A stretch of 64,000 nt of DNA, from NCBI GenBank assembly GCA_012401045.1, contig GCA_012401045.1_4704.1. One strand, given 5' to 3'. Each line of letters opens with the position of its first letter. Positions within the stretch are counted from its first letter, which is position 1. The DNA is from a phage. Shown in pieces: positions 8,334-56,158 of this stretch. A program made the translations under genes and the position numbers. A model generated the notes under the pieces. The model worked only from the letters and a program-made list of their open reading frames with translations, did not search any database and was not told the DNA's origin.

Positions 8334-8928
8334 CTGTTAGCTCCTGGGGACGTTCAACAATCGCGCCAGACGGGCAGATATTGATCGTAATGTTAATTGA
8401 CGGCATCGCCATCACTCGAGGATTACTATTACGTACGCGGACAACATGTTCGGTTGCTGATTTACGATCGACGCAATACTCTGTTTCTTGGAACTCAAAT
8501 GCTTTTAACGGCGTTGGTTTTGTTTGACGTTTAGGAACGCGGCCAAGATCAACAATATAGGCATAATCGCACACACGTTCTATTCCGTAAATACGGTTAT
8601 CCGACCAGTTCTTACCAAACAGCTTGTTGTGATGATAAGACAAATATTCGGTTACCATACCCTGGACAACATCGAAATCTTCTCGAAATTCAGGTTGGTA
8701 CCAAATCGGGCCGAGAATATCTGCGAACGATTCATGACGATATCGAGGATCATGTCGAGTCCAGGTCATTCTCTGGTTAAGATCGAAATCCACCAACAAC
8801 TCGGTTAATTGCAATTTTTCCTTCGGAGAAAGCTGGCGTTGATGATGCAAACTCAGACAATCGATAAGCGGTAATGAAACCCACGATGCTAATGTGTACA
8901 AATCGATCCTGGCTAATCTCTTGGTCAT
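7951..8928 (-). CDS. Hypothetical protein (325 aa in this frame; last 40 aa doubtful)
   Basis: SD AGGAAAAG upstream of ATG 8928; C-terminal RPRRHRHTKSRTG tract suggests frame exit near 8080. Confidence 0.5.
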   Translation of the reverse strand: MTKRLARIDLYTLASWVSLPLIDCLSLHHQRQLSPKEKLQLTELLVDFDLNQRMTWTRHDPRYRHESFADILGPIWYQPEFREDFDVVQGMVTEYLSYHHNKLFGKNWSDNRIYGIERVCDYAYIVDLGRVPKRQTKPTPLKAFEFQETEYCVDRKSATEHVVRVRNSNPRVMAMPSINITINICPSGAIVERPQELTDEQFEWLGQLEELRLAHAKRKAEQLANEPVYIKQGLALKERFKQRRSVFGPVQPVLYEFGVPEYRMDAESVATAFLDNGEIHRQGARSSGPFRPVRVQRPRRHRHTKSRTGNDDVSRDMDRSHYRTY

Positions 8929-8983
8929 ACTCTTTTCCTAAGTCCCCATTGTTTATACACACGATATCTGGGAATAGTTAAAA

Positions 8984-8999
8984 TATACGGCGTAAAACG
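8984..8999 (-). promoter_or_regulatory. Variant late-type motif (minus orientation TTTTACGCCGTATA) upstream of 7951..8928 gene
   Basis: Plus strand TATACGGCGTAAAACG; one mismatch from ACGGCATAAAA family. Confidence 0.35.
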
Positions 9000-9019
9000 A
9001 AGCAGGAGAGTTTCTGACG

Positions 9020-18313: not shown

Positions 18314-20545
18314 TTAGAAAAAACCGCCCGGGCGGTATTGACCCATCGTCATCCACGCATTACGAGAAATATTCCGTTCATTCGAAGAGCGGCTTATTTG
18401 ACGATAAGTATTCGCTCGTTCCTCCCTTGCTTTCGTGATCATCGCATCAATAGAAACAGCCGCTGAATCCTCCCCACGTATTTTTCCTTTATACGTAAGA
18501 AGCTCTGCCTCCAATCGATCCAAGATAAGGCCGTTGGTTTCGGTCTTAAGCAACTCATAGATTTCAGCAACGCGTTGACGTAGCTTCGCCTGCTGTTGGT
18601 TAAGATACGCTTCATACGGATCGATTTCACCCGTTACAGATGCTGGTAAACGACTCATGACTTTAAGTGGATCGATACCGTAATGGATCTGTTTCTTAGC
18701 ACGCTTGATGAACCACATCGCTAACATCCATGCGAACGTCATGTCATCGTGCATTCCATCCTGGTGATCGACACGCCCATCTTTGATAACCAATCCGAGG
18801 ATCTCGGAACACAGCATCTTGTCACGTAACTGCCCGCGGGTTTCTACAATACCTTCCATCAAGATGTCGGAATACAACTCCATACGTTTGCGCGCATCCG
18901 TTGTGAAGCCTAAATGCCGTTTACGTTGAGCATACCAACTTTCATCACGCATGCTCAATGGTAATTTCAGGTCTTCGAACATCGCTGGATTATCAGCATG
19001 CCTGTCTACAATCGTGTTGTATACGCGTTTGAACACGTCGATGCCCGCTTGCCGCAAGAACTCTTCAATTGCGTCTAACAGCATGATTGCACTGCTTTTA
19101 CGTTCAGGAATCAACGTAACGTTCTTAAAACGCATCATGAAGTTGGCCATCCAACGAGCAAAAGAAAGCAGACTCAGTTTATTAAAACGTCCTGTCGCAA
19201 CAACTTCTGCTGTTTCTACATCCACCATCACCAAACCGATAGCGTCACGACCTATTGCATCGCTGGTGTCTAAACCAGCAACCACCTTATTGTTCTGCAT
19301 GTATGTCTCGATTTTACCTCGAGGTATATACCAGTTAATGCAGTAGCCTTCAGGTGAGATCTCGATATGGTCGATTTCACGTTGTCCCGCCATGATCATC
19401 TCAACCATCTCAGCGGTTAACGGGCTTTCTGCTGAACCGTTGGTCCAGATGTTCATGTAGTCGCGGTCTTTCTGAAGTTTATCACCTTCCGTTTCGTTCA
19501 TGGTTTTTGCTAACCATTCATCACTGAAGCCCAGCTGAGCGTGGTTCCATTGTGCCCCGATCCTGACGGTTGCTTTGCTGAGCTCGCACGGCACGTTGTT
19601 CAATACCGTCTGATGCAGATGCTTTTCATTACGGCAGTCAAAGAAACTTTCAGAGAACGGCGCTGAACGCATGAAAACTTCATAAGCCCATTTGCCTTCG
19701 CGTTTATCCAATTCACCTGCTGTTGTCGTATAGATGATACTCGTCAGGTCGCCGTTGCTTAATGCTTCATCGCGTGCCGCACCCATCGCACCGATACCAG
19801 CAGGAACAATGATTTCGATGTATTTCGTAAACGCGGTTTCGTCGCTATGAAATAGCGGGGTTGTTAGACCACGGCCGATGTTTGTTGCTTGTTTCTTATC
19901 CGAACGTGGAATCTTTACCGATAACTTGTTCTTGAAACGTGTGTAGGTTACGTTCTCTTTGTTCGATGAATCACGGCTATCCAGCGTCCAGAGATACGCA
20001 GGCAGCAGATCACGTATACTACGCACATCTTCTACTGTTTTCGTACGGGCATCACCGTCTTTTGTTAACTGAATAACCTCGGTGTTTCGACTACGAACAT
20101 AGGTTAGATAGCAGAACAATCCTAACATGGTCATGGATTTACCCGTCTGACGTATCTGTATCTGATACCAGTTCGTTCGGGTAAATATTCCCCAGAGCAT
20201 CGGAATGTTACCGCGGTTAGCACGGAATGAAATTTTGTTATCACCCGCTTTAGCCGGAACACGCATCACTTCACGGAAGAAGTACCATGGATTAAGATAG
20301 CATTCCGCACTGATCATCTGAATCTGTTCTGACGTCAAATTCGGTGCGTGGGGATCAACACCAATCAATCTTGGGTTTAATAACGCCATGAAAAACGCAG
20401 AGTTCCGGACACCGAATTCACGACGATATAAGATCGCTAAATCACGCCAACTTGTGTTTGTTGTTTCCCAGTGTGGAACAGCCTGAGGAAAATAATCCCA
20501 ATCTTCCTCAAACAAGATGATTTTCTTCGGATCGACAATCGACAT
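18314..20545 (-). CDS. terL: Terminase large subunit (743 aa)
   Basis: Walker A-like IQIRQTGKSMTMLGLF (cf. T4 gp17 SRQLGKT as I recall it), C-terminal acidic HQDGMHDDMTFA nuclease-like motif; SD GGAGGAG upstream. Confidence 0.78.
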   Translation of the reverse strand: MSIVDPKKIILFEEDWDYFPQAVPHWETTNTSWRDLAILYRREFGVRNSAFFMALLNPRLIGVDPHAPNLTSEQIQMISAECYLNPWYFFREVMRVPAKAGDNKISFRANRGNIPMLWGIFTRTNWYQIQIRQTGKSMTMLGLFCYLTYVRSRNTEVIQLTKDGDARTKTVEDVRSIRDLLPAYLWTLDSRDSSNKENVTYTRFKNKLSVKIPRSDKKQATNIGRGLTTPLFHSDETAFTKYIEIIVPAGIGAMGAARDEALSNGDLTSIIYTTTAGELDKREGKWAYEVFMRSAPFSESFFDCRNEKHLHQTVLNNVPCELSKATVRIGAQWNHAQLGFSDEWLAKTMNETEGDKLQKDRDYMNIWTNGSAESPLTAEMVEMIMAGQREIDHIEISPEGYCINWYIPRGKIETYMQNNKVVAGLDTSDAIGRDAIGLVMVDVETAEVVATGRFNKLSLLSFARWMANFMMRFKNVTLIPERKSSAIMLLDAIEEFLRQAGIDVFKRVYNTIVDRHADNPAMFEDLKLPLSMRDESWYAQRKRHLGFTTDARKRMELYSDILMEGIVETRGQLRDKMLCSEILGLVIKDGRVDHQDGMHDDMTFAWMLAMWFIKRAKKQIHYGIDPLKVMSRLPASVTGEIDPYEAYLNQQQAKLRQRVAEIYELLKTETNGLILDRLEAELLTYKGKIRGEDSAAVSIDAMITKAREERANTYRQISRSSNERNISRNAWMTMGQYRPGGFF

Positions 20546-31805: not shown

Positions 31806-32615
31806 TTACCAATGATTAAAGCTGCCCGCTTTAACGACATCACAACGTAGGTGGTTACGTAACTGATCCAGGAAGACAACCGGACTGTCGCCAGACAACA
31901 TAGCCAGCGCGTGTTGGCCACCGGAACGAACAACAAGCTCATCGACCATTGGTGCTGTAATCGGGAGATCATACGCATCCATGATTGCTTTGGCTTCCTG
32001 TTCTACGTCTTTCTGGAACCCTTCCATCGTCGGAGAGTCATATTTGGTTGCAAACTCGATCCCAGGCAAGTTAACGTAATCGTAAGTCATGACACGGGTC
32101 ATAACACGACGGCGCTCACGTTGCCAGATCTGAGGATCGGTTAACGCGCGAACCGAAAAACACACGTTCACCAACGGCGTTTCAAAATCTTTACGTAATG
32201 GATCACCGTACGGCCCGCAAGGAATAACATCCCCCATCACCATCACGACAGGACGACCACGACGATCGCGTCCCGCTTCTTCTAACCAAATCTTAGAAAA
32301 GCAATGGCTTACCTTCGTTTCTTCGATTCGTAACGCTCGCTGCAAAAAGCTGGTTGCATCCTGACCGATCTCTGGTTTAGGGTGACCGTATTCACCTTTC
32401 AACGAACGATTGCGTGCGTTTGTTTGCAGTAAGCTGTTTTCCAGAAACAGCGGTTTCGAACGCTCAAGTTCGTAATATTCTTCGGTATTGTTAAAACAGT
32501 TAAATCCGCCGATAACACAGGTGTAGGCACCGTCAGCATTAGGACGGATAATACCTTTCTTATTCACACCAAGATAACTGGTGCAAACAAGATTACTAAT
32601 TGGTGGTTGCATCAT
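31806..32615 (-). CDS. Hypothetical protein (269 aa)
   Basis: ORF. Confidence 0.65.
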   Translation of the reverse strand: MMQPPISNLVCTSYLGVNKKGIIRPNADGAYTCVIGGFNCFNNTEEYYELERSKPLFLENSLLQTNARNRSLKGEYGHPKPEIGQDATSFLQRALRIEETKVSHCFSKIWLEEAGRDRRGRPVVMVMGDVIPCGPYGDPLRKDFETPLVNVCFSVRALTDPQIWQRERRRVMTRVMTYDYVNLPGIEFATKYDSPTMEGFQKDVEQEAKAIMDAYDLPITAPMVDELVVRSGGQHALAMLSGDSPVVFLDQLRNHLRCDVVKAGSFNHW

Positions 32616-33426: not shown

Positions 33427-34137
33427 TCACCCCCTCAGAATCGCTTCTGTTTCGCTGATCGTATCCGCAGGATAAACCAAACTACTATCGATTGCGTTAT
33501 TCACGTAACCACCCATTAAGTTGGTGATGGTGTTTGTACCACTATCGATAATGTTTCGTAATCCGATATCGATGGCTTTTAACGTGCTGCGTTCCTCATC
33601 CGAAAGCAAACGCCATGCTCGACGACGATCGTTGGGGTCACGTGTGGTGATAGAAGCCAGAACAGAATAGATGCTGCTATCCGCATTCAGTTTAACGCCT
33701 GCCAATTTCGCTGACGTGTAGAGCAGCTGATATTTTTCTTTCTCAGTGTACCACCATGGCACTTTACCGAGCGTATAGATCTCGTTATACATCAGCCATG
33801 GGAAAGAGTTTCGCATCACGACATCGGTTGACACCAACACCGTGTCACCGGGAAGAAACACAAACTCATAAAACGGCTGGCCATCCATGGTAATTTCACG
33901 GATGTCAGACGGGTCGATATGGAGCTGGGTCAATGCGTGGCTGACACCATACTGACCATCGGGAAGAATAATCGGGCAGCACGCACAAACCCGGTTCTCA
34001 CTCCCGATGATAGATAAACCCAATCCCTCGTAACGGACGGGTGTCAGAATCGAACACCCGCCACGAGTAACAACAGATTTATCTTCTTGTATGTCCCAGT
34101 CCGCAAGCACCGCAGCACCGTTGCGGACAAGCGCCAT
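33427..34137 (-). CDS. Hypothetical protein (236 aa)
   Basis: ORF; 1-nt gap to neighbours. Confidence 0.65.
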   Translation of the reverse strand: MALVRNGAAVLADWDIQEDKSVVTRGGCSILTPVRYEGLGLSIIGSENRVCACCPIILPDGQYGVSHALTQLHIDPSDIREITMDGQPFYEFVFLPGDTVLVSTDVVMRNSFPWLMYNEIYTLGKVPWWYTEKEKYQLLYTSAKLAGVKLNADSSIYSVLASITTRDPNDRRRAWRLLSDEERSTLKAIDIGLRNIIDSGTNTITNLMGGYVNNAIDSSLVYPADTISETEAILRG

Positions 34138-35969: not shown

Positions 35970-35995
35970 GAGCAGGGGCATGAAGCCCCCTGCTC
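35970..35995 (-). terminator. Intrinsic terminator after the RNAP beta-like gene
   Basis: gagcaggggc/gccccctgctc stem followed on minus strand by GTTTATTTCG; abuts stop codon. Confidence 0.6.
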
Positions 35996-38900
35996 TTATT
36001 TAGCGTCGTTAAAGTAAATATCAACAGCTCGTTCCGTTGCGTAGAGGAGACCAAGATTCACAGTCCCAACCACTTCCGGTGAACCGATGATACGGTTAGC
36101 GATACTGGTGCCACTGAAGATAGCATCAAGGGTGTGCCCGTCTTCGGTTTTGTTCACACCATGACCCACGGAAGAGACAACGGATTTCGCTTGAGCTGCG
36201 AAGGTACCTTTATCGCCCATCCCCGCACCAAGGTCGTAACGCATGAAAATACGGATTGCGATCTGGTTCTCGCCTAACGGATTACCGTCTATTCTCACGT
36301 TACTGTTATTGATACGCCCCGTAGCTGCTTCGTTGAGTTTCAGTTCCTTAACGCGTTTAGCTCGCGCTTTATCTGCATCACCGACGAGCGCCGCCATGGT
36401 TTCACTCATATCCTCAATCTGAGCGCGGTACAACACATCGATCTGTACAACTTCACCATGAACGTCAGCACGTGGGTTATACTGACTCATACGACGTAAT
36501 GCTTCAACGGCTTCCTGACTCTCATCACTCAGATCGGTCGCAATCGGTTCTTCCAGTGTTGCAAGGATCGTTCGTGGTTCAACATGATCGCCGATTTTCA
36601 CGAGACCACGAATGTTGAGATGGGCGTCAACGATGAGCGTACGGCTCTTAATCGATGGTGTTACGAGACGATCGGCAAGATTGTCGAAGATATACGAACT
36701 GTCCTCGTGAGTCTCTGGAATATCCAGAATACCGACAAGAGACAGAACACCTGCGCGCCAAACAACCTGACCTGGGTTCCACCAATCGCGTTTAAAATAA
36801 AGACGATGGAAGACCACCACATCCTGATCCTTAACGCGATCCCCGACTTTATAATCGGTAATAAGATCGTGAGGATAATACTTACCTGGTCCTTTCCCGA
36901 TTATCGTGCCGAGTTGGAAAACCTCTTCTCCTAACTCTGGATCGTCGTATTGTATCGTAAGCGCAGTTTTGGTGACCTTCTTAACAACACCATCGCCTTG
37001 GGCAGCTGCTGCGAAGAGCTTACCAACACGATGCGCGATAACGGTCTCACCGCCGGTGCGCCACGGTTGTACATCGTAACCCTCAGCGGCAATCATGCGG
37101 TTGTGTTGGATCCCGACGAAGACCAGACGTTTTCCATCATCACGGTCTACGGCTGGAACAGCTAACGCCGACGTACTCATTACCGATGAGATACCGTCTG
37201 TCTTTTCATCGAATGGTCGTGTTTCACCATACACCGACACGATATTAGCATTAGGTGCAAGGTAAGCTGAGATACCCACATCCCCACTATCTTTCGTACC
37301 CTCTGACACAATACCAACATCGGACTTGTCGTATTCACGATCACGTGCGCGTCGAAGCGATGTCTTTGAACGACCCCCGATACCGGTCATCGTTGCTTCT
37401 TCACCCTGCTTGATATCCAGCATCGGGTTGGTTTCATCGATCACGATGGACGCGCTGTCGTCGAGAATTTGGTTCCAGACGCTTACCGGACTGATTGAGA
37501 TTTTCTGGCGATTTCCTTGACTGCTGTTCTCATTCTGACGAATAGCGCCAACCAGATCCTTATACACCAATTCAGCGAACTTATCGTACGTTTTAAAACG
37601 TTGGTAGTTCACATCGTTGGTGTTAGGTGCCCAGTCATCCAGAAGCAGTTCAACAGCACGCAGTAACAACATGGCGAAATCGGTAGGTTCTCCCATGTTC
37701 TGTAGCAACGTACGGCTTACCGGATCAACGAAAAGACGCTCCATGAGTTCAAGTTCGCGTAAATGGCGAACCTTAAGTCCAGCACCATCAACAACGTTAA
37801 AATAGATATCTCGATTGTCGAAAGCACCGCGAGCGTAACCGATGTAGTTACGGTATTCGTTAAACCCACCCAGCAACAACGTCGTCATGCGATCGTCTTT
37901 ACTGAAGATCAAACTTTCGTCATCAAAGCTCACCGCGAATTCATCGGGTGCTAATCCCATACGAGAACCGCGAGGTACCGTACGATAGTTCGCTTTAAGA
38001 TGTTCTAATAACGGGGTAAGTCCACCCAGATAACTTAGAACGACACCAACCGGAATACGTACACCCATGAATTCAAGATCGGCGGCTTCGATCGGCATCT
38101 TAGCCGCATTGATACCGAAGAAATCAGGGAACGTCCCTACAGGTGTTGGTGTTTGTCCTGACTGACAGATATAGAGCTGATTGCGTTTATCGATTGCTAA
38201 GAATTCACCCAGCGTGTTACGCGCAAACGTCAGGAGCCCTTCGGCTAACTGTTCGTTGAACCGATCTTCCCCGATGAACTCCGGCAATGTCTTTGTATCG
38301 AGACGTATATCCCAATCAGCAAATTGGATTTGGGTATAGTTGCGTGCAAGCACAGCGAAGTAATACGGGACTTTGACGGCCGGATCAAAGACGTTACCAC
38401 GTTTTAACGTGGTTAAGGGTGAGGACTTATCGTAATACATCGCTGTAAGTTGGCGTGTTAACCAACGACCGGCGTTATTAACGACACGCTCTGAACGTTT
38501 AACAAACACCTTACCGTAGGCGGTACTCAACGCAACTTCGGATGATGATACCTTTCTAATAGGTTTATCAACACGTTGTTTACGCATCCGGTATTTGATG
38601 CCGTTAACGACATAAATGCCGTCCTTACGAACCTTCGGCAACATCACCGGGAACGTGGTTGGGACACCGCCTACAGGGGCCAGTTTAATCGTGATAACTT
38701 GATAATCCCCCATCACGTCAACAACATCTTCAACTTTATATCCCGTGACAGGGTAACCTGCCTGTTGTACGGCAACAACAGCGGCTGCGATGTCCTTTTG
38801 CATCACGTGTTCAACGTAATGTTTATCCCACACCGCAAGCGTCGATTTACATAGGCTCTTATCGACGATAACATCCGCTTCCGGCATAACCTTTGCTGGC

Positions 38901-40342
38901 GCTAATTTCGCGGCTTTTGGTTTAACTTCAACATACTCAGCAAGTGTTAATCCAGAACCGTCGGGTGCTTCGATTTCATGGATGGCGTCGGCATTACGCA
39001 TCGCTGCTTTATATTGGACACCGCTTAACTGACCCGCATCCGCCAGATCGCTCGCGCGCACCAACACCGCATCCGATAACGACTGAATATATTCACCGTG
39101 TGTTTTTGGTAACGTTGCCGCGTCAAAGACATCAACCTTTTCTTCTTCGGTATCGTCGGTAACGACCTCGAAGAGATCGTCGGTAATGTCCTGATCTTCA
39201 TCGGGTTGGAAATCCGGCTGTACTTCTACCCCGGGTACTTCACGGACATCTTCGAACGAGCGTTCTACAATGGCGTTCCACGCATCAGCGTCATCGTCTT
39301 CATCCGACCCACCAACCAACTCCGCTTCTAACTCATCGGGATCAAGAACAGTGGCCAGATCCTCACCGTTAGGAAGCACGACGTCGCGATCATCGTACTC
39401 TGCATCCGGGCTGTCCGCAAGAATATCTCGCTCTTGACGAAGAACCTGTTCCTCTTCTTGTTTCTGTTCTTCTTCATTCGCGCTCTGCGACCATAGACGT
39501 GTTACCGCCATCATCCAACGACGCTGGAAGGTTTCGAGTGTCGTTTTATCGAGTTCTTCCCCTTCCTTTACAAGCCCGGTACGCCATTCTTCCAACAGGC
39601 CGAGATTCAGCGTAAAGAAGTACACGCCGTCTGTAAATACAACGTTAAGCTTATCCAGCGTGGCTCTGTCTAACGAAGCCATCGTGCTGTTCTCACGATC
39701 GGTTCCCAGCCAGCGGAAGAAGTCAAAGAACGACAGCTCCTCCGGCGTAGCGAAATTCATGAGGTTGTTACGGGTCGGTGCCTGTTGCGTGGTACGCATC
39801 AACGAAATCTTCGGCAATGTTGACGGTATACGGAACAACAGAAAGTGTTGGCGATCGCTTTGCTGCGCGATTTCGTTGGCTTTCGACCAAATTGTTTTAC
39901 GTACGTTGAACCATTCATCATACCAACGGGTGAGCGTTGGACGATAGATGTACATGTGGTTAAGATGTGCGTAGTTAGCAACGATCTGAGCGTTGATGTT
40001 TTTCTCCACCGTACTTAGATCGGTAACCAAACGAAAACGACGATGTGACGCACGATAATCCAATTTCGCTCGTGGGAGCTGGAATCGCTGATCACGTCGA
40101 GGTGCACCCTGTTTGGTTGCGAGATCATCAGCAAACGAAATCCATAGTTGAGCACTTTCTTTACTCAACATGTATTCGTTTTCTGGAGGACCTATCAATG
40201 AAGGATCCGTTGCGGTGTAATGATAGACAGCATAACGTGGCAGCTGCAATAGCTGCACTAAACGTAATCTCGGTGACAATAGCTCTTGGTAGCGTCTGAC
40301 GCCAAACTGTCGGTAGTAATCAAGGTATTTAAGTTTTGCCAT
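35996..40342 (-). CDS. Multisubunit RNA polymerase beta-like subunit (1448 aa)
   Basis: IVSVYGETRPFDEKTDGISSVMSTSALAVP (cf. E. coli beta [32 protein letters not shown]), GMGDKGTFA and EDGHTLDAIFSGTSIANRIIG (cf. beta RHGNKGV / DIVLNPLGVPSRMNIGQ), E. coli comparisons from memory. Confidence 0.65.
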   Translation of the reverse strand: MAKLKYLDYYRQFGVRRYQELLSPRLRLVQLLQLPRYAVYHYTATDPSLIGPPENEYMLSKESAQLWISFADDLATKQGAPRRDQRFQLPRAKLDYRASHRRFRLVTDLSTVEKNINAQIVANYAHLNHMYIYRPTLTRWYDEWFNVRKTIWSKANEIAQQSDRQHFLLFRIPSTLPKISLMRTTQQAPTRNNLMNFATPEELSFFDFFRWLGTDRENSTMASLDRATLDKLNVVFTDGVYFFTLNLGLLEEWRTGLVKEGEELDKTTLETFQRRWMMAVTRLWSQSANEEEQKQEEEQVLRQERDILADSPDAEYDDRDVVLPNGEDLATVLDPDELEAELVGGSDEDDDADAWNAIVERSFEDVREVPGVEVQPDFQPDEDQDITDDLFEVVTDDTEEEKVDVFDAATLPKTHGEYIQSLSDAVLVRASDLADAGQLSGVQYKAAMRNADAIHEIEAPDGSGLTLAEYVEVKPKAAKLAPAKVMPEADVIVDKSLCKSTLAVWDKHYVEHVMQKDIAAAVVAVQQAGYPVTGYKVEDVVDVMGDYQVITIKLAPVGGVPTTFPVMLPKVRKDGIYVVNGIKYRMRKQRVDKPIRKVSSSEVALSTAYGKVFVKRSERVVNNAGRWLTRQLTAMYYDKSSPLTTLKRGNVFDPAVKVPYYFAVLARNYTQIQFADWDIRLDTKTLPEFIGEDRFNEQLAEGLLTFARNTLGEFLAIDKRNQLYICQSGQTPTPVGTFPDFFGINAAKMPIEAADLEFMGVRIPVGVVLSYLGGLTPLLEHLKANYRTVPRGSRMGLAPDEFAVSFDDESLIFSKDDRMTTLLLGGFNEYRNYIGYARGAFDNRDIYFNVVDGAGLKVRHLRELELMERLFVDPVSRTLLQNMGEPTDFAMLLLRAVELLLDDWAPNTNDVNYQRFKTYDKFAELVYKDLVGAIRQNENSSQGNRQKISISPVSVWNQILDDSASIVIDETNPMLDIKQGEEATMTGIGGRSKTSLRRARDREYDKSDVGIVSEGTKDSGDVGISAYLAPNANIVSVYGETRPFDEKTDGISSVMSTSALAVPAVDRDDGKRLVFVGIQHNRMIAAEGYDVQPWRTGGETVIAHRVGKLFAAAAQGDGVVKKVTKTALTIQYDDPELGEEVFQLGTIIGKGPGKYYPHDLITDYKVGDRVKDQDVVVFHRLYFKRDWWNPGQVVWRAGVLSLVGILDIPETHEDSSYIFDNLADRLVTPSIKSRTLIVDAHLNIRGLVKIGDHVEPRTILATLEEPIATDLSDESQEAVEALRRMSQYNPRADVHGEVVQIDVLYRAQIEDMSETMAALVGDADKARAKRVKELKLNEAATGRINNSNVRIDGNPLGENQIAIRIFMRYDLGAGMGDKGTFAAQAKSVVSSVGHGVNKTEDGHTLDAIFSGTSIANRIIGSPEVVGTVNLGLLYATERAVDIYFNDAK

Positions 40343-40345
40343 GGG

Positions 40346-41992
40346 TTAGGCTCCACGAGGTCCCGTTAAGTTGCGTAATAGGAACGCAACCGTATCGTAA
40401 CCAATATCGATGTTGAATTTATTTTTACCACTTACCCAGAAAGCTCGCTTCTTGTGCGAGTTGGTAATTTCGTCAATAGCTTCCATGGAATAAAGAACGT
40501 TAACCGAGACCGTATCACCATCAAAGTCCCCACCAAGTCCGGCGAGGTATGGCGCAGGGACAATAGTCGTTTCTACGAACGAAGCATTAGGTAACCAGTC
40601 GGGGTATTCCCATGCGATAAATCGTTCATCCGTTATTGGTTCCCAGTTACTATCCAGTTCGGTTTTCGGTTTTGCGGCGACGGTTGTACGTGCGTAACAG
40701 GTTAACGGGATAACGGATTGCATACCTGATACCGGATAACGTGTTACCATCGCAGCCAGGTTATTCCAGTACTTATATCCGGCAATATAGATAAGCTCGG
40801 TGTAAGTAATGGGGTGAACATCCGCGCCAGGTTTATTCAACATCTCCGGGGGTAATTCACTCATGCCACGGAATAACCGAAACGAATCGTTGTTCACATA
40901 GACGAGGCAAAGATATCGTCCATTGACCATGATAGGCTCGTTACGCACGCCAGGATCGCTTAAGGTGTTCAGTAAACGTTCTATTCCGTCCCATGTTGTA
41001 AAGTCATCGATGGTGTCTGGATCAAGCGTGACGCGCTCACGTTCCATCGTTTCGGTATCAGTAAGTTCAACTTCTGTAACATCACGGACAAATATTTCCT
41101 GCAAAATACCGGTACGTAACGCATGTTGCGTTACTGGGAGAGCGGCTTTACTCATCTGGTATAACCCTAACTGAACCGCGGTACAGGAAGGCTGGTTAGG
41201 CGACCCTAATACCTCCGTTGTGGGGTTAATTGCCGAAATAACGTTACGGGTTGAGTTCCAAACGCGACGTGAACCAAACTTACCTTGGAAGATCCCTTTC
41301 TTACCCTGGAACATATCCAACAGTAAAGCGTAGATATCGTTGAATGTTCTCTGTAAGCTCCAGCGCTGGCCGTCGTAAACGGGATCGGAATAATCTTTTA
41401 ATCCATCAGGGACGGTGTTAGAAATTGCAAGGAAACGACGATACAACTCCGTGATTTCTTGCTCGCTTTCATACCCACCTTCTTTTACTTCTATTTCACG
41501 TAAGCCTGCAGGCAATACCAGTAAGTGACGGGTCATCGCTTTGAACATGTTCTCTTCGACAACTTTAATTCGTAGCTCTCGTTGAGCTGAACCCGTTGAA
41601 ACGAACTTGATATCCGCGACGTGTTGTGCAAAGAACCCGTATCCTGTTTGTCCTGTTAATGCATCAGACGCAACGAAGTCGCGTTGTTCGGGATCCCACC
41701 GAGCGTACGCCTTCCCCGACATGATATCGCCATAGAGGTGTTTTAATCGAATGAGACGGTCGTAAATGACAGGATGCAGGATTTCAACCTTGCATTCAAT
41801 CACCGCAAATCGACGGTCTCGATCTTCACTACCCGCACTACCAAAGATGGTGTAAGAATAGAAACCATCATCGTGGAAATTACCGGTGCTTGGGTCACGA
41901 ATGCTCATGCTCGTGATCTTGGGGAGAAAACGTAACTGCTGTTTATCGAGGTGTAAAATACTAATATTAAACGGCTCTCTGACTTTAGCCAT
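40346..41992 (-). CDS. Multisubunit RNA polymerase beta-prime N-terminal-half homolog (about 548 aa)
   Basis: C-terminal GGDFDGDTVSVNV (beta-prime NADFDGD catalytic motif), GKKGIFQGKFGSRRVWNSTRNVISAINP (cf. LLGKRVDYSGRSVIVVGP), RRFAVIECKVEILHPVIY; start ATG 41992 with SD AAGAGGAG. Confidence 0.8.
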   Translation of the reverse strand: MAKVREPFNISILHLDKQQLRFLPKITSMSIRDPSTGNFHDDGFYSYTIFGSAGSEDRDRRFAVIECKVEILHPVIYDRLIRLKHLYGDIMSGKAYARWDPEQRDFVASDALTGQTGYGFFAQHVADIKFVSTGSAQRELRIKVVEENMFKAMTRHLLVLPAGLREIEVKEGGYESEQEITELYRRFLAISNTVPDGLKDYSDPVYDGQRWSLQRTFNDIYALLLDMFQGKKGIFQGKFGSRRVWNSTRNVISAINPTTEVLGSPNQPSCTAVQLGLYQMSKAALPVTQHALRTGILQEIFVRDVTEVELTDTETMERERVTLDPDTIDDFTTWDGIERLLNTLSDPGVRNEPIMVNGRYLCLVYVNNDSFRLFRGMSELPPEMLNKPGADVHPITYTELIYIAGYKYWNNLAAMVTRYPVSGMQSVIPLTCYARTTVAAKPKTELDSNWEPITDERFIAWEYPDWLPNASFVETTIVPAPYLAGLGGDFDGDTVSVNVLYSMEAIDEITNSHKKRAFWVSGKNKFNIDIGYDTVAFLLRNLTGPRGA

Positions 41993-42237
41993 GGAGACAC
42001 TCCTCTTTACCACCACCGGCTGCGGCGGTATCATCTGAACACACGAGAGACGTAATGGGTGATGGCGTCACCCATCGCTTCCTTGCTTGAGGCGAGGAAG
42101 TTATTAGGTTACGTACCTGCCTGATTTTATCAGGTGGGCGATGTGTGAAGTTACGCTTCAACATTATCAATGCCGAAGGTAAACTTCGTGCATCACGTTC
42201 CAACGTAACATGGGAACGTATCGAACTGGAGGTATAC

Positions 42238-45200
42238 ATGGTAGATAAAACCCGTGTTGAGGGTGATGATAATTGGGACAACTGGGATGAAGACTTCTCC
42301 CTGGATCTCGATTTTAACGAACCCAAAGACGATCGTAAACCGATAACACGCTTTGCGATAGGAGCGGTTAAAGGTGCTGCTGAGGATCTTACTTCCTACG
42401 AAAGAATGAAGGAGATCGCCAGAAACGCATTGCCTAAGGGCTACAGCGACGGTATGGATCTTATTGATTCCGCCGTCGGATCCACGAAGGAACTATACAA
42501 TGAAGCCGTTCGTGACGTTCTTCCTAAGGTCCAAAGCTCAAAACGGTTAGCCGCACAACTGACCAAGAAATACCGTGCGAGCATGCCCGATTTCTCGAAG
42601 AAAATTCTTGAGCAATGGGAGCGAGAAGCCAAGGAAGAAGACGAACGTAAACAAGCTGAAGAAACCCTTCGTCAACGCATGGCGAGCGCGGGGGACGATG
42701 AGATCGCCCGCAAGGTTGCCGAGGCATTAGGCGAATCAGCAAACCAAAGCGCGGATCAGTTCGCTGAACAGCAAGCGAAAGAGAGTATCCGTGACGATAT
42801 CGCTGACAAACGGTACGCTGTAACCAACAAACAAATGAGTGCGATGCAAGAAGGCGTCGCCAAGATGGTTGGTTTCAACAATGAATTCGCTGCACGCTAC
42901 ATGCGTAAAAGCCTGGAACTGAAATATCGTTCCTTAGCGATTCAACGTGCAAGTTTTGATCAGCATAAAAAGTTAGCCGAAGTCTATATCGGTTTATTAC
43001 AAAACATCCAGAAGAATACGGCTTTACCTGATGCGGCTAAAGCAAAAATGTCGGAAGAATTCCGCCGTAGCGCGTACCAACGTTTCTTTGGTAATGCGTT
43101 AGATGCGATGAGTTCTTTCGAGAACCGTTTCTTTGCCGATGTTAAGAAAAACCTTGCCACCAACGCATTAGGTGCTTTAAAAGGCGTCGTGTCTGGCGCA
43201 AACGATGCGTTATACGGTTTAAACGAAGCACGTGACTCGATATCCATGATGGATGGGATGGGGTCAGATGGCGATATTAAGGAAATGCAAGGAAAGATGT
43301 TGGGTCAGTTCATTGGCTCAACTGTCGCACCATGGATGGCTAATAAAGGCAGGATGGCGTTACGCGATTTAGCAAAACGTCACCCCAATGCTAAATTCGC
43401 TAGCGCGTTAAAAGCCGTGGATCAAGGTGGTGAGGCTGCCGCTTACACAACGCGTAATCTCGGTAAACTGCTCCAGGAAGATATTCGTAAGAACGAATTC
43501 AATCTTAGCGATCCGTTTTACAAGCAATTGTTACGCGGTGCAGGGCGTTGGGCGTTCAACATGGACAGCGGACGTAACTTCCGCGTGATGAACGACACCG
43601 CTGAAACACTGGCAGAGCAAACATCTTTCGACGGTTTAACCTACCGCAGCATCAACGAGGTTATTCCAGGCTTTCTTGCACGCATTCTGAAAAGCAGTGA
43701 AGGCATCCGCACCGGAAACAGCGATCCTGACTACGAGGTCTATGACGGCATCAGCGGGCAATTCGTGTCTCAGCGCACGCGTGAGCAAAGCGTCAACGAC
43801 ACGCTGTTTAACAAACGTTCATTTGGTTATTACGCCAGCCGTTTCAACGAGGTTATCTCGGTCATCGATCCCGATAAGCAATTATCGGAAAAAGCCAGGA
43901 AGGCACTGGCTAAACAGTTGGCACGAGATAGCGACGCGAACATCGCATTCGACCCGGCTCGTTTTACGGATGAAAGCAACTTCGATCGTAGTATCGACCG
44001 TGACGCTATTAAGGAACTTTCCACGTACTTTCGTGACCGTTACGGTATTCGTGACGATATCAACGATAAGGGGGAACGTCATCAGGTCATTGGAAACCGC
44101 GGGCAATATTACACGGAACGTAACCGAGCCGATCTTCGTTACGGTAATCTGAAATCTTTACAACCGGATATCCAGCGTAACCTTAACCTGCTGAAACGTA
44201 CTGGTGACGTCCAATATCTGGAACGGATCGGGATTGTAACGAGAAATAGCGACGGAAGTTACTCGGTTAATCACGATAGGTATTTCTCTGAAATCGATCG
44301 GTACATCGACCGGCCGGAGTACGCTGACCGCGGCGATGTTAATACGCGATTAACCGCTCAGGAAACAAGAGCGCTGGCGCTGGGTTATCGTGACGCAAAA
44401 CCATCAGCTGGTGACGTCCAAAATGTCGGCCTGCCGAACATCGGTCGTAAGGCTGCTGGAACAGTAACCGTTGATGAAAACATCGGCTACGATAAATGGT
44501 GGAACGACACAGGTGTTATCACCACATCGCTTGAAGAACAGAATCGAGCGTGGCAAGAGCTTTATCTCGAGGCGTTGTCCGAAGCATCCGAACAACGTGT
44601 TGAAATGCTTGCGCTGCTGAAAGCCATTTCTGAGAAAGACTGGTCTAATAACGTTTCGCTGGATGGTGAAGATGTACCTGAAGGTACAGCACCCATTTCA
44701 TTTATCGATCGTGCCAAACAAAAACTCGGCGGACGCAACCTGTTTAAAGGCGGCCGCAATCTCCTCTGGAAAGGAATTAAAAATACCGCACGTTTAGGTG
44801 TTAAAGGCGCACGCTGGGGTGCAGAACGCACGTTGGGTAGTTTGGTAAATTCTGGCCGACGCATTATCAATTTCAACCGCTTCGTGTTCGGCGCATTATC
44901 CAAGGTTGATCAGGTTCCGTTTGACATTTACGTTAAAGGGGAATCCCAACCACGCATATTGGTTGCTAAACTTCGTCAGGGGTTATACTTCGATGAAGCG
45001 ACAGGAAAAGCCGTAAAACGGATGAAGGATATCAAAGGCCCACTCGTTGATGCGGATGGAAACATCGTAATCAGCAACGAGGATATCGAGAAAGGGTTGG
45101 TCACTCGCGCTGGTCGTGCCTTTGAGAATTCAGGACTTAAAGCATGGGCACGTGAAGGTCTTAATGGAATAACGACGGCATTAAGTCTCCCACGGATGTT

Positions 45201-48200
45201 AAAACGCGGTGCGGTTGAGATCTACAAACAGCTTGACAAAACACCCGACGTTTACGTCAAGGGAGAATCAACGCCTCGTCTGTTGTCCATGGTGTTAGCA
45301 GCGGGTGGGTATTTCCGTCGCTCGGATGGACAAGTCATCAAAAATCTTGAAGACATCGATGGTGATGTTGTTGATGCACAAGGTAACGTCGTACTTACGC
45401 TTGCCGACATGCAGAAAGGACTTGTCGATAAATACGGTAAAGCGATTCGTCGTTTAAAAGAAAAGCTCATCAACTTCGGTGTAAAAGCTTTTACGTTACC
45501 GTTAACGTTGCTACGTAAGACAAAGGACATCCTTAAAGCCCTTCCAGGTAAAACCGTTAACGGTCTACGGCGGATGGGATTAAATTTCCAATCACCTGAC
45601 GCGTTACTGGTGGGAACAACGTCGAGCATGGTAGATCGCCTCGATGCTATTTACCAGCTTCTTGACCAGCGTATGCCGGGAGGTGATAAGGATTACCGCG
45701 ATTGGAATGGCGATGGTGTTCGAGAAGGATCGTTGGAAGACCTGAAACGTAAGCGTGAAGCCAAGGAAAACGGTAAGGATGACATCGGCAAAGATTCCAA
45801 TAAAGGAGAAGAAAAGGAGAAGAAACGAGGGTTACTCGGAAGCCTTTTCGATATGCTCGGTGATACCGCAATAGGTAAACGTCTCATGGCGAGTCCGCTT
45901 GGAAAAATTCTGGGTGGTCTTGGGGCGGTGTTAAGCGGCGGTGCGTCGTTAACTGGGTTGTTGGGCAAAGGTCTCATTAGAGGAACCGGCGCGCTGGTCA
46001 AGGGAGGACTAAGTGCGGCAGGATGGTTAGGACGTGGTGCGTTAATGGCGGGTGGGGCCGCGTTGAACGCCGTTGGTGGGTTATCGGGATTAGGTGCATT
46101 CCTCATCTCACCTGTTGGGCTTGCTATCGCTGGCGGTGCGTTGGCTGCTTATGCTGGATGGAAGATCTATCAGCATTTCGCCGAGAAGCCTGACCCGATG
46201 CAGAAGCTCCGTCTTATTGCATACGGTGCAAAAGGGGACGATAAAGACTTCAATAAGAAGCTGCTTGCGACAGAAACATACCTCACCGACCATGTGGTTA
46301 TGACCGGGGATACCATCGGATTCGATCCGAAAGCCGACTCGGAAAAGATTCTCGAAATCTGGGAATTGTCTCTGGAAGATTCCGACCGAATGAACGAATG
46401 GAAACGCTGGTATCTGCATCGTTTTATTCCTGTTTTCGCTCGCGCGTACAAACTCTGGAAAGAGCATATGCCGGACGAGAAGAAATACATGGAAATGGAT
46501 AAATATCCGAACGGTGAGAACAAAGTGAAATGGTCGGAAGCGTTTATCTGGCCTTCCGATAGTCCTGATGGTCCGTATTACGTCGAAGCTAACCCGTTGG
46601 GTTCTTCTGGTGCGACGCGTTATATTGCTGGTCAAGACGTCAAAACCTTGATGCTGAAACAACTCGAAGCCATCAAGAAAGAGTACCAGAATCAGATTAA
46701 GCAATACACTCATGATGAGGCTATTGCTGATTGGTCACGGATGTCTGACACACAACGTAAATCCGTTGCGCCTAACGCATTACGTGGTCAGAAAGCGTCA
46801 TTACGTTTTAACGATAAACGTTACAACAGCGCTGGTGCTAAAGGACGACAGAAACTGGATGCAACCGCGGTTATTGAAAGCGTAGACCGCCGTGGTAGGA
46901 AATGGGTTGCCGGTGGATACATCGATGAACTCACCAGTCTTCGTGTTCGTGCGTACGGTATTAAGGTTCCGTTGTTAAGTCAGATAAAAGTGCTGATGGA
47001 ACTTGAAGACGCTGTAGAACCTGGCGTTGTCGCTGAAGGTAAAGGTGTTAAATACGGTGGCGATCTTGTCGCGCTCTACAAGAAATTCGCGACGAAGTTC
47101 GGAAGAGACGTTAACAGCAAGCATGATCAGGATATCTGGTTTGCTTGGATGAACAACCGTTTCCTGCCCGTCTTTTTAACCTATTACCAACAAGTTAGCG
47201 ACATGGGCGGTCAAGGACTTCTGTCCGACGTGGTACAGAACCTGAAAGACAGCCAACGCTGGGAAATCGGTGAAGCACTTGTCGCAACGCAATACCGTGA
47301 TGAGAAAGGTACACTGCAGCCTGTATGGTCCTGGAATAGTTGTGGTTTCTCCGGTACTGAAGCTAACACCACCAGCAGTTCAACAAAGAGCCAACTCGAT
47401 CTGTTAAAAGAATATGCGGATAAAGAGAAGGTTCGTGAGAAGAACGCGGAAGCATCGCAAGAGGATACCGATAAATTATCGAAGATCCAAGAGCTGATGA
47501 TGAAGCAGGCTGGGTACGAGAAGAAAGACGGTGTCTGGCAGAAGAAATCTCGCATTACCGGCGGGATGAGTAACTCCGAAGCGAATTACAACCCCAATAG
47601 GAATAAGGTCGGTGAAAGCAGCTTTACGGCTTCGGCTACTTCCAATGCGGGATTAGGGTCAACCGGCGATCTTACCGGATTGCCTAACATGGGCTTACAG
47701 AAACCTGCAATGGGACCAGGTCCTGAAGCTGGACGTCGTGCGCTTGTTAAATCCGCTGTAAAACGCGGCATTACCGATCCGATGGAAATGGCGATGTTCC
47801 TTGCGAACATCGAACATGAATCGGGGAACTACACTCACGTACGTGAGGGGAACTATAAGACACCAGAGCGTCTTAAACAGGTCTTCCCTTACAAATTCCG
47901 TGATGTGCAGGATGCCGCACAGACGATCAGCATGGGTCCGGAAGTGGTATTCGAACGTGTGTATGGTAATCGTAAAGATCTCGGAAACACACAGAAAGGA
48001 GACGGGGCGAAGTATTTAGGACGTGGCTTCATTCAGGTTACCGGTAAAGCTAACTACGCTCGTCTGTCCAAGACCTTGAATAAGGATCTTGTCAGCGATC
48101 CGACCTACCTGGAAACGCCGGAAGGTGCAGCGGAAGGTAGTGTCGCATGGTGGCTCAACCGAGGTAACGTATTACGCGATCCCGCAAAACGGGGTGACGT

Positions 48201-48903
48201 ACGCCAAGTTCGTTATCTAGTTAACGGTGGCTATAACGGATTACGTGATGTTGAACAACGTTCTGCATATTGGATTCAGGCAGCTAAGAATGGCACCCTG
48301 AAGAAAATGATGGACGAGTTATCAGGGTCAACATCAGACGATCAAGCTGAAGGACCGACCACTGCCGAACAGGTGAAGAACGAAGCAGCACAAGAGGCAA
48401 ACGGAACACCTGCTGTAAGCAACGATCCGCAAGCCCCAGTATCTTCTACCACCCCTGAAGCTAAACCGTCTGCGGCTGCCGGGACGGCCCCAGCACCTGG
48501 GGAAGCATCACCAACGCCTGGAAGTTTCGAAACAGCAAAAGCCGCGGCAGGACAACCGACATCAACTCCAGCACCTAGCGATTTGCCGTCAAACCCAGGC
48601 GCAAATCGAGGGATATCGGTTCCGAATACACCTGCACAGGTTGCGCAGTCTGCGACACAAACGTCGGCTGCAAGTGAGAACTTCTACGGTAGCGCAGGTG
48701 AAATTCTCCGACAGCAGCTGACCACACAGCAGAACATCGAGAAGAACACCGGTAGAACGAATGAACTTATTTCGGAATTAATCCAAGCCGTTAAGGGTTC
48801 TTCTATCGGTAAGGGTTCTGCAAGTCCTTCTCAACAACAGACGATGTCACTACCTAATCGTCCGCAAGGAATCTCTCCAACACGGACAAGGTACGCACAG
48901 TAG
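42238..48903 (+). CDS. Giant virion-associated protein (about 2221 aa) with C-terminal-region GH19/lysozyme-like peptidoglycan hydrolase domain
   Basis: [10 protein letters not shown] ... [32 protein letters not shown] motif (GH19-type); Gly-zipper hydrophobic segment; internal ~109-aa tandem repeat; Pro/Ala/Ser/Thr-rich tail; start ATG 42238 with SD GGAGGT. Confidence 0.8.
   Translation: [2221 protein letters not shown]
44917..45570 (+). repeat. Internal tandem duplication (2 x about 109 codons) inside the giant gene
   Basis: [19 protein letters not shown]...[18 protein letters not shown] versus [18 protein letters not shown]...[18 protein letters not shown]. Confidence 0.6.
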
Positions 48904-55483: not shown

Positions 55484-56158
55484 TTAGCCCTCATCAAGGT
55501 TATTCTGGAGATGCATCGCGGTGAGGATAACGCCAACCGCCGAAACCGATTTTGCCTTGCTGTCTTCAGGGAGCTGCTCCAAGCTTACGGTACCTGTTTC
55601 TAACAGCATGCGGTTCATTGCGTTGAACTTCTTATCGTCACCACCACGAGCCTGCATCAGCTCTCGGTTCACGTTCGGCATCGACCGTCCTAACGTCGCT
55701 TGCATTTCCGGCTGGCTCCAAGTGGAACCTTTACTATCACCCGTCGGCTGATTGGTGAGCTGGTCCTTGGTGTTGTTGTTTTTCGGAATCGAAATTTTAG
55801 CACTCAACGTTTCGGCTTGTCGGCGGTTTGGAATCAGGTACAATCTGGTTGGGCGGTCACGAAGCACCAATTGCCCTGTTTTCTGGTCGGTGAGATAAAT
55901 GCGTTGGAAGAAAGGGAAACCGTATTTCTTACCGACTTCCAACGCACGTTTTATCGTCACCTCGTTTTTGTTCATGTTGGGTACCCAGATGGGTAGAATC
56001 TCTTTCTTATCCCGACATAAACGCATATAGGCATCAAACGTCTCATCATCGATTTCAGCAAAACGTTTTTTGTAAATAGCGTAAGTCGGGCTCGATTCAC
56101 CCACCAGGTCTTTGATATACCCAAGAATGAATTTTTCTGCTGCAGCGCGGTTGGACAT
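55484..56158 (-). CDS. Hypothetical protein (224 aa)
   Basis: ORF. Confidence 0.6.
   Translation of the reverse strand: MSNRAAAEKFILGYIKDLVGESSPTYAIYKKRFAEIDDETFDAYMRLCRDKKEILPIWVPNMNKNEVTIKRALEVGKKYGFPFFQRIYLTDQKTGQLVLRDRPTRLYLIPNRRQAETLSAKISIPKNNNTKDQLTNQPTGDSKGSTWSQPEMQATLGRSMPNVNRELMQARGGDDKKFNAMNRMLLETGTVSLEQLPEDSKAKSVSAVGVILTAMHLQNNLDEG

Follow-up and report, generated by a model that had tools for sequence, protein, structure and literature searches.

A 1448-residue β-like subunit of the virion RNA polymerase in a Goslar-like jumbo phage, and where its β is split

Introduction

How does a phage RNA polymerase (RNAP) divide its β subunit between genes? The question is raised by a 1448-residue open reading frame (ORF) on the minus strand of a 64,000-nucleotide stretch of phage DNA (GenBank assembly GCA_012401045.1, contig GCA_012401045.1_4704.1; hereafter the window). 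The original prediction took this ORF (35996..40342) for an unsplit RNAP β-like subunit, a single polypeptide that would differ from the split β of phage phiKZ. We find that the ORF, with its ATG start, is real, and that its product is very probably the known large β-like subunit of the five-polypeptide virion RNAP (vRNAP) of a Goslar-like (phiKZ-type) jumbo phage, or chimallivirus. The split in its β falls late, past the catalytic barrel, just as it does in phiKZ and SPN3US.

The vRNAP is packaged in the phage head, injected with the DNA and transcribes the early genes, and all five subunits are needed before incorporation into the prohead. Reviews describe a vRNAP core of at least five polypeptides, with β split at different sites in the vRNAP and the non-virion RNAP (nvRNAP). 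Packaging, the five-subunit requirement and early transcription are taken here from the literature; orthology, domain boundaries, the mapping onto β, its split and synteny come from the present analysis.

Results and Discussion

Family membership

The gene and its system are already known. The protein is essentially Goslar gp207 (YP_009820912.1, 'RNA polymerase beta subunit', 1448 residues), with 96.2% nucleotide and 99.4% amino acid identity. Both phages have the same gene, neighbours and terminator; they differ in the upstream β′N gene, which in Goslar holds a group I intron and gp206 and in the window does not. At the family level, residues 4-1443 matched PHROG 3148 (profile 2-1420 of 1424, 1388 bits). 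The protein was found by tblastn in 313 phage records, with at least 80% of the query covered in 225, and an identical protein represents 665 member sequences in public assemblies.

Orthologues in six genera span 1315-1514 residues, nearly all of 22 metagenomic relatives span 1384-1483, and phiKZ gp178 has 1451. A length of 1448 residues is therefore the family norm, phiKZ included. The phiKZ protein, annotated 'RNA polymerase beta subunit; structural head protein', occupies the same syntenic position, and its pairwise alignment covers window residues 3-1435 at 31% identity. Like SPN3US gp241 (1401 residues), it shares with the window protein the length class, tripartite architecture, synteny and companion subunits (βC, β′N and β′C), differing only in sequence divergence and in the length of the linker, given for these orthologues as 133-194 residues. 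The supposed difference from phiKZ thus disappears.

Gene order was conserved in Goslar, phiKZ, PA7, SPLA5c, Machina, Miami and Vibrio phage sm033, running from the giant lysin gene through β′N, large β, a small ORF, a ~500-residue ORF and a ~240-residue virion protein (β′C) to the prohead protease. The window gene fits this order, lying downstream of a β′N gene with DFDGD, by the giant tail lysin gene, and upstream of β′C and the prohead protease. Its product also shows the end-to-end homology at about 1300-1500 residues that unites gp178, gp241 and PHROG 3148, and a non-β N-terminal extension of about 400 residues consisting of a domain and an acidic linker. A word-indexed search for homologues yielded 3 relatives when queried with the full protein and 22 when queried with an alignment of the linker-free body; the low yield of the former was probably due to the acidic linker filling the candidate list.

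Architecture and mapping onto cellular β

An alignment of nine orthologues divided the protein into three parts, residues 1-265, ~266-445 and ~446-1448, the last being a well-conserved body. The N-terminal domain (residues 1-265; 39548..40342, minus strand) is family-specific, basic (net charge +6) and predicted with confidence to fold as an α/β domain (pLDDT 80-93 in the AlphaFold 2 (AF2) model). The linker (residues ~266-445; 39008..39547, minus strand) is acidic and disordered, with a net charge of -38 and 26-38% D/E; it begins with a long helix, is gappy in the alignment and ranges from 75 to 194 residues among orthologues. The model itself covered residues 1-1000, was built from a 19-sequence alignment (mean pLDDT 77.7), and was confident at 1-288 and 410-970 and disordered at 289-402 (pLDDT <50).

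Residues ~446-1448 are β proper and amount to about four fifths of a cellular β. Within them we distinguish a diverged N-terminal half comprising the β1 protrusion and β2 lobe (residues ~446-964; 37451..39007, minus strand) and a catalytic half (residues 965-1418; 36089..37450, minus strand) with the fork-loop region, the DD motif, the flap and the double-psi β-barrel. A Pfam scan of the full protein and its neighbours gave no RpoB or RpoC match, and a single-sequence phmmer search of the full protein against the PDB gave a chance match only. The β assignment therefore rests on profile and structure comparisons.

Comparison with RpoB profiles had been proposed as a check in the original prediction, and it bore out the β motifs reported there for the C-terminal third. 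Window residues 965-1418 aligned with E. coli RpoB 512-1107 in hhalign (probability 95.8%, E 7e-9). The family hidden Markov model (HMM) profile matched Thermus β (1119 residues) with E 2.6e-15. The match comprises four collinear blocks, in which profile positions 540-557, 941-1010, 1022-1148 and 1332-1389 correspond to β 117-134, 394-464, 534-656 and 822-881. The fork-loop region lies at residues 965-1030 (E. coli 512-580; the HMM block against Thermus 534-656 has a domain E of 1e-10). The DD motif, D1068/D1069, falls on E. coli D674/D675 (VDRDD1069GKR against LEHDD675ANR). The barrel lysines are likewise present, GDK1378...K1386 corresponding to the catalytic GDK1065...K1073 of E. coli and to Thermus 822-881.

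The original prediction had described the N-terminal 800 residues as free of recognisable motifs, and the observation stands: Pfam finds nothing there, which explains why no motif was seen over most of the length. In a local hhalign comparison with E. coli RpoB, residues 446-964 gave only marginal similarity, with one 'IP..DG...NG' block (567-629, equivalent to β 126-185, P 0.04) that is the same block picked by HMMER in Thermus. Foldseek searches with the 1-1000 model gave as top matches the N-terminal β fragments of phage nvRNAPs, AR9 chain c (E 1.5e-7, 523 columns, TMt 0.51) and phiKZ gp123, followed by cellular β chains over 470-590 columns. Both the β1 protrusion and the β2 lobe were recovered. 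We assign residues ~446-964 to these lobes on the predicted structure, which decides the matter where sequence similarity is marginal. The nvRNAP βN chains lead the structural matches because the PDB holds no vRNAP structure; no solved structure of a jumbo-phage vRNAP was found there or in the literature searched.

The window protein and cellular β (E. coli RpoB, Thermus β) thus share collinear lobes, fork, DD motif, flap and barrel. The former differs in its 445-residue N-terminal extension, in being too divergent for the Pfam RpoB models and in lacking the last ~235 residues, which a separate protein carries. It also has no α, ω or σ partners. The β pieces of the nvRNAP (phiKZ gp123 with gp71/73; AR9) are paralogous and β-like, and nvRNAP βN is the best structural match for residues ~446-964. 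In the nvRNAP, β is split mid-way, separating the lobes from a catalytic half that still has the C-terminus attached, whereas in the vRNAP the lobes and barrel stay together and the C-terminus is split off. The nvRNAP has neither the N-terminal domain nor the acidic linker, and is not packaged.

Location of the split and the βC gene

A complete β would carry the C-terminal clamp/anchor (E. coli ~1108-1342) on the same chain. The alignment instead stops at E. coli β 1107 of 1342 with 30 phage residues left, so that ~235 β residues are unaccounted for. The window also contains, at a distance of 15 kb, a 224-residue ORF (55484..56158, minus strand) that matches PHROG 3233 'RNA polymerase beta subunit' end to end and is the orthologue of Goslar gp196, itself annotated 'RNA polymerase beta subunit', and of SPN3US gp218. 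Its family profile aligned by hhalign with E. coli β 1161-1312, within the missing part (E 0.014). In Foldseek the top 35 matches of its model were all RNAP β chains, each weak (best E 0.011); as the AF2 model is of moderate quality (pLDDT 65.7), this result serves as a consistency argument only. The assignment as vRNAP βC is carried by the agreement of these independent lines together with published genetics of SPN3US, in which gp241 (1,401 residues, the homologue of phiKZ ORF178) is termed 'βN' and gp218 (222 residues) 'βC', and knockout of either gives virions that lack every one of the five vRNAP subunits; gp241 is essential. The claim of an unsplit β-like subunit therefore held in part: the protein is β-like and has lobes and barrel on one chain, but it is not a complete β.

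Several points weigh against our identification. The Pfam RpoB domains give no match at all to the 1448-residue protein. The lines of evidence for βC are individually weak, and no β was retrieved from the PDB with an HMM of the 224-residue family. In the account of Iyer et al. 2021 the vRNAP β comprises three pieces; we count two because structural mapping places lobes and barrel in one polypeptide in the predicted model, and a two-piece vRNAP β agrees with Thomas 2016 and Sokolova 2020. For the window phage itself, packaging and activity of the protein are extrapolated from relatives, and the role of the N-terminal domain is one that we infer.

Group I introns in the vRNAP genes

Many relatives of the gene are interrupted. 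Among the 150 best cluster representatives bearing the N-terminal domain, 34 were full length, and the ORF stopped at residue 592 (…QRxD) or just beyond it in 42 and at residue 1069 (…DD) or just beyond it in 55. At each site (window 38567-38569 and 37136-37138, respectively) the break directly follows an Asp codon, and the surrounding block is highly conserved. Complete phages bear the same interruptions, Yong XC31 at exactly residue 592 and three others (Totoro, PS1, EL) at exactly 1069. The insertions of EL and Yong XC31 contain full-length matches to the group I intron (E 6e-9 and 2.5e-9, respectively), with scores below the Rfam gathering score, and such β-gene introns are missed by Rfam at the gathering threshold, appearing only at an E-value threshold. 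The 1069 site is the intron site studied in PhiPA3 (gp210); no description of the residue-592 site was found in the literature searched. The window allele is uninterrupted at both.

The β′N gene is a further target. In Goslar a 2,051-nucleotide insertion (L001 6767-8817) separates D from F in DFDGD, equivalent to 40526-40532 of the window (D503|F504), and consists of a group I intron (RF00028, 67.7 bits) with the homing-endonuclease-like gp206 (phiKZ ORF179-like). Introns also occur in the β′N genes of phiKZ (92 bits) and Vibrio phage Yong XC31 (70 bits). The window carries the intron-less allele, and no Rfam family was found at the gathering threshold anywhere in the window. The RefSeq coding sequence of Goslar gp205 (YP_009820914.1, 502 residues, L001 5307-6815) does not stop at the 5′ splice site but continues within the intron (…GGDQGKANKMPVFWQI*), so that the deposited protein is mis-annotated; its true C-terminal ~60 codons (FDGDTVS…) follow the intron at L001 ~8815-9000.

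Alternative identities

That the 1448-residue protein is a complete, unsplit β unlike that of phiKZ is very unlikely. One polypeptide does hold the lobes and the catalytic barrel, which nvRNAPs split, and it is longer than E. coli β. The extra length, however, is the N-terminal domain and acidic linker rather than β, the alignment ends well before the E. coli C-terminus, the window has a βC gene, and phiKZ has an equivalent protein. The claim thus fails because of this 1451-residue counterpart and because the last fifth of β is a separate gene. Still less likely is membership of the non-virion (middle/late) RNAP. Its βN chains are indeed the closest structural matches, but only for want of a vRNAP structure in the PDB. 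Goslar gp207 was among the vRNAP subunits detected in virions, the annotation of phiKZ gp178 names a structural head protein, and the gene lies within a head-gene cluster near the prohead protease. An nvRNAP β, moreover, is cut mid-way into pieces of about 490 and about 700 residues, unlike the arrangement here.

The original prediction had also allowed that resequencing might resolve the gene into two ORFs. Such an artefact, with the true gene in two parts or interrupted, is the least likely of these readings. It could draw on the 97 of the 150 representatives above that stop at one of two fixed positions, and on the gene being in pieces in PhiPA3, Totoro, PS1, EL and Yong XC31. Those interruptions, however, are group I introns, some of them accompanied by homing-endonuclease genes, so that the spliced product in these relatives is again one polypeptide. 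The window reads in frame through both sites with conserved sequence and Rfam finds no intron in it; the gene is also uninterrupted in Goslar, phiKZ, PA7 and others, and an identical protein stands as representative of the 665 member sequences. We therefore retain the large β-like vRNAP subunit as the identity of the protein.

The N-terminal domain

A phmmer search with residues 1-265 against 1.84 billion representatives found 680 proteins (E up to 1e-3), with the domain always at the extreme N-terminus, which marks it as specific to this subunit. It showed no similarity to RpoB (P 0.55), no Pfam relative when 55 N-terminal fragments were searched (E up to 10), and none among PDB sequences in a profile search. 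The AF2 model gave a SUKH-like fold signal that was not localised to any part of the protein and had no sequence support in the Pfam or PDB profile searches.

Published work bears on its role. A region of ~400 residues without β homology stands at the N-terminus of SPN3US gp241, a protein without which the other subunits are not packaged. Thomas et al. suggested a role for the N-terminal region in targeting the complex into the prohead, and Iyer et al. also described this non-β N-terminal extension. Processing differs between phages: the 201phi2-1 orthologue is cleaved at TFE-275 by the prohead protease during head maturation and loses the region as a propeptide, whereas SPN3US retains it. In the window protein a TLE (T-x-E) sequence at residues 268-270 (39533-39541) stands at the boundary between domain and linker, at the position of the TFE-275 cleavage; GEE (261-263) and ANE (288-290) lie nearby. 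The boundary at ~265 and TLE 268-270 would fit a possible cleavage of the 201phi2-1 type. The prohead protease gene (31806..32615) lies 3.4 kb downstream of the ORF that carries this boundary. A preprint on the Goslar virion makes no mention of proteolytic processing of gp207.

Earlier descriptions of the N-terminal domain go no further than calling it 'unique' and guessing at head targeting. Tentatively, and at low confidence, it might adopt a SUKH (SMI1/KNR4/Syd)-like fold and act as an adaptor that docks the five-subunit polymerase to a prohead partner via the ~180-residue polyanionic linker; it might also replace the α platform or shield the injected enzyme. We give slightly less credence to the domain being, instead of a capsid-targeting handle, an assembly platform in place of the missing α, or a SUKH-type protein-binding/immunity module acting after injection. 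The SUKH match is not localised to the domain and lacks sequence support. The region is also cleaved off during head maturation in 201phi2-1, which argues that, for this phage at least, the injected enzyme has no essential need of it.

Virion packaging and proposed mechanism

Mass spectrometry of Goslar virions detected gp78, gp196, gp205, gp207 and gp210 as the five vRNAP subunits. Counterparts of gp205, gp207, gp196 and gp210 are encoded in the window, as β′N, large β, βC and probable β′C; that of gp78 (β′M) would lie outside it. With gp207 in the virion and the gene in synteny with head genes, the assignment to a virion-packaged RNAP set made in the original prediction is upheld. Mass spectrometry has likewise placed SPN3US gp241 and the phiKZ vRNAP in virions, and by analogy with these and with Goslar gp207 the window protein is expected to be packaged in the virion head and injected. 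In the assembled enzyme, K1378 and K1386 of the barrel would complete the active site opposite DFDGD of β′N, and the last fifth of β, the part that clasps β′ in cellular enzymes, would come from the separate 224-residue protein. The N-terminal domain may serve as a handle for moving the pre-assembled complex into the prohead, with the acidic linker as its flexible tether.

Expression signals and neighbouring genes

The 1448-residue ORF ('vRNAP βN') is preceded by a Shine-Dalgarno GGAG 9 nucleotides 5′ of its ATG, within the end of the preceding gene (…GGAGCC TAA CCC ATG…); this TAA ccc ATG junction couples it tightly to the β′N ORF. Directly after its stop codon lies an intrinsic-terminator-like hairpin (35970..35995, minus strand) with a 9-bp G+C-rich stem of 7 G-C pairs followed by a T-run, at the place where the Goslar annotation has a terminator.

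The β′N ORF (40346..42034, minus strand, 562 residues) contains GGDFDGD in translation, with the catalytic DFDGD at residues 503-507, and matches PHROG 2986 (597 bits). It is the orthologue of Goslar gp205, phiKZ gp180 and SPN3US gp240. Its real start is probably M15 at 41992, to which the Goslar start maps. In the literature phiKZ gp180 is the DFDGD-bearing vRNAP subunit; the subunit next to the giant protein is thus β′N, and the phiKZ subunits had been interchanged in the original prediction. That prediction also placed the large β gene beside the giant lysin-domain protein (42145..48903, plus strand, 2252 residues, with an endolysin PHROG domain). The two belong to the same conserved cluster, but the β′N gene stands between them.

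On the other side, a 236-residue ORF (33427..34137, minus strand) is probably vRNAP β′C. It matches PHROG 2926 end to end, is the orthologue of Goslar gp210 (listed in the virion), phiKZ gp176 and SPN3US gp244, and occupies the same syntenic slot in phiKZ, PA7, SPLA5c and sm033. Elsewhere in the window, a terminase-large-subunit-like ORF of 743 residues (18314-20545, minus strand) matches terminase PHROG profiles over its first ~210 residues only.

Conclusions

The feature that made this gene look unusual, a β in a single polypeptide, is not real. What the locus clarifies is how the two phage polymerases divide β: the vRNAP β is cut late and the nvRNAP β mid-way, and the 445 extra residues at the N-terminus of the former are not β. 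If the SUKH-like reading of the N-terminal domain is true, the match of its boundary with TFE-275 would make it a removable targeting module. In relatives, mobile group I introns sit within codons or next to codons for the catalytic site in vRNAP genes, of which the window carries uninterrupted alleles; these observations are relevant to competition between phages, in which such introns were recently shown to play a part.

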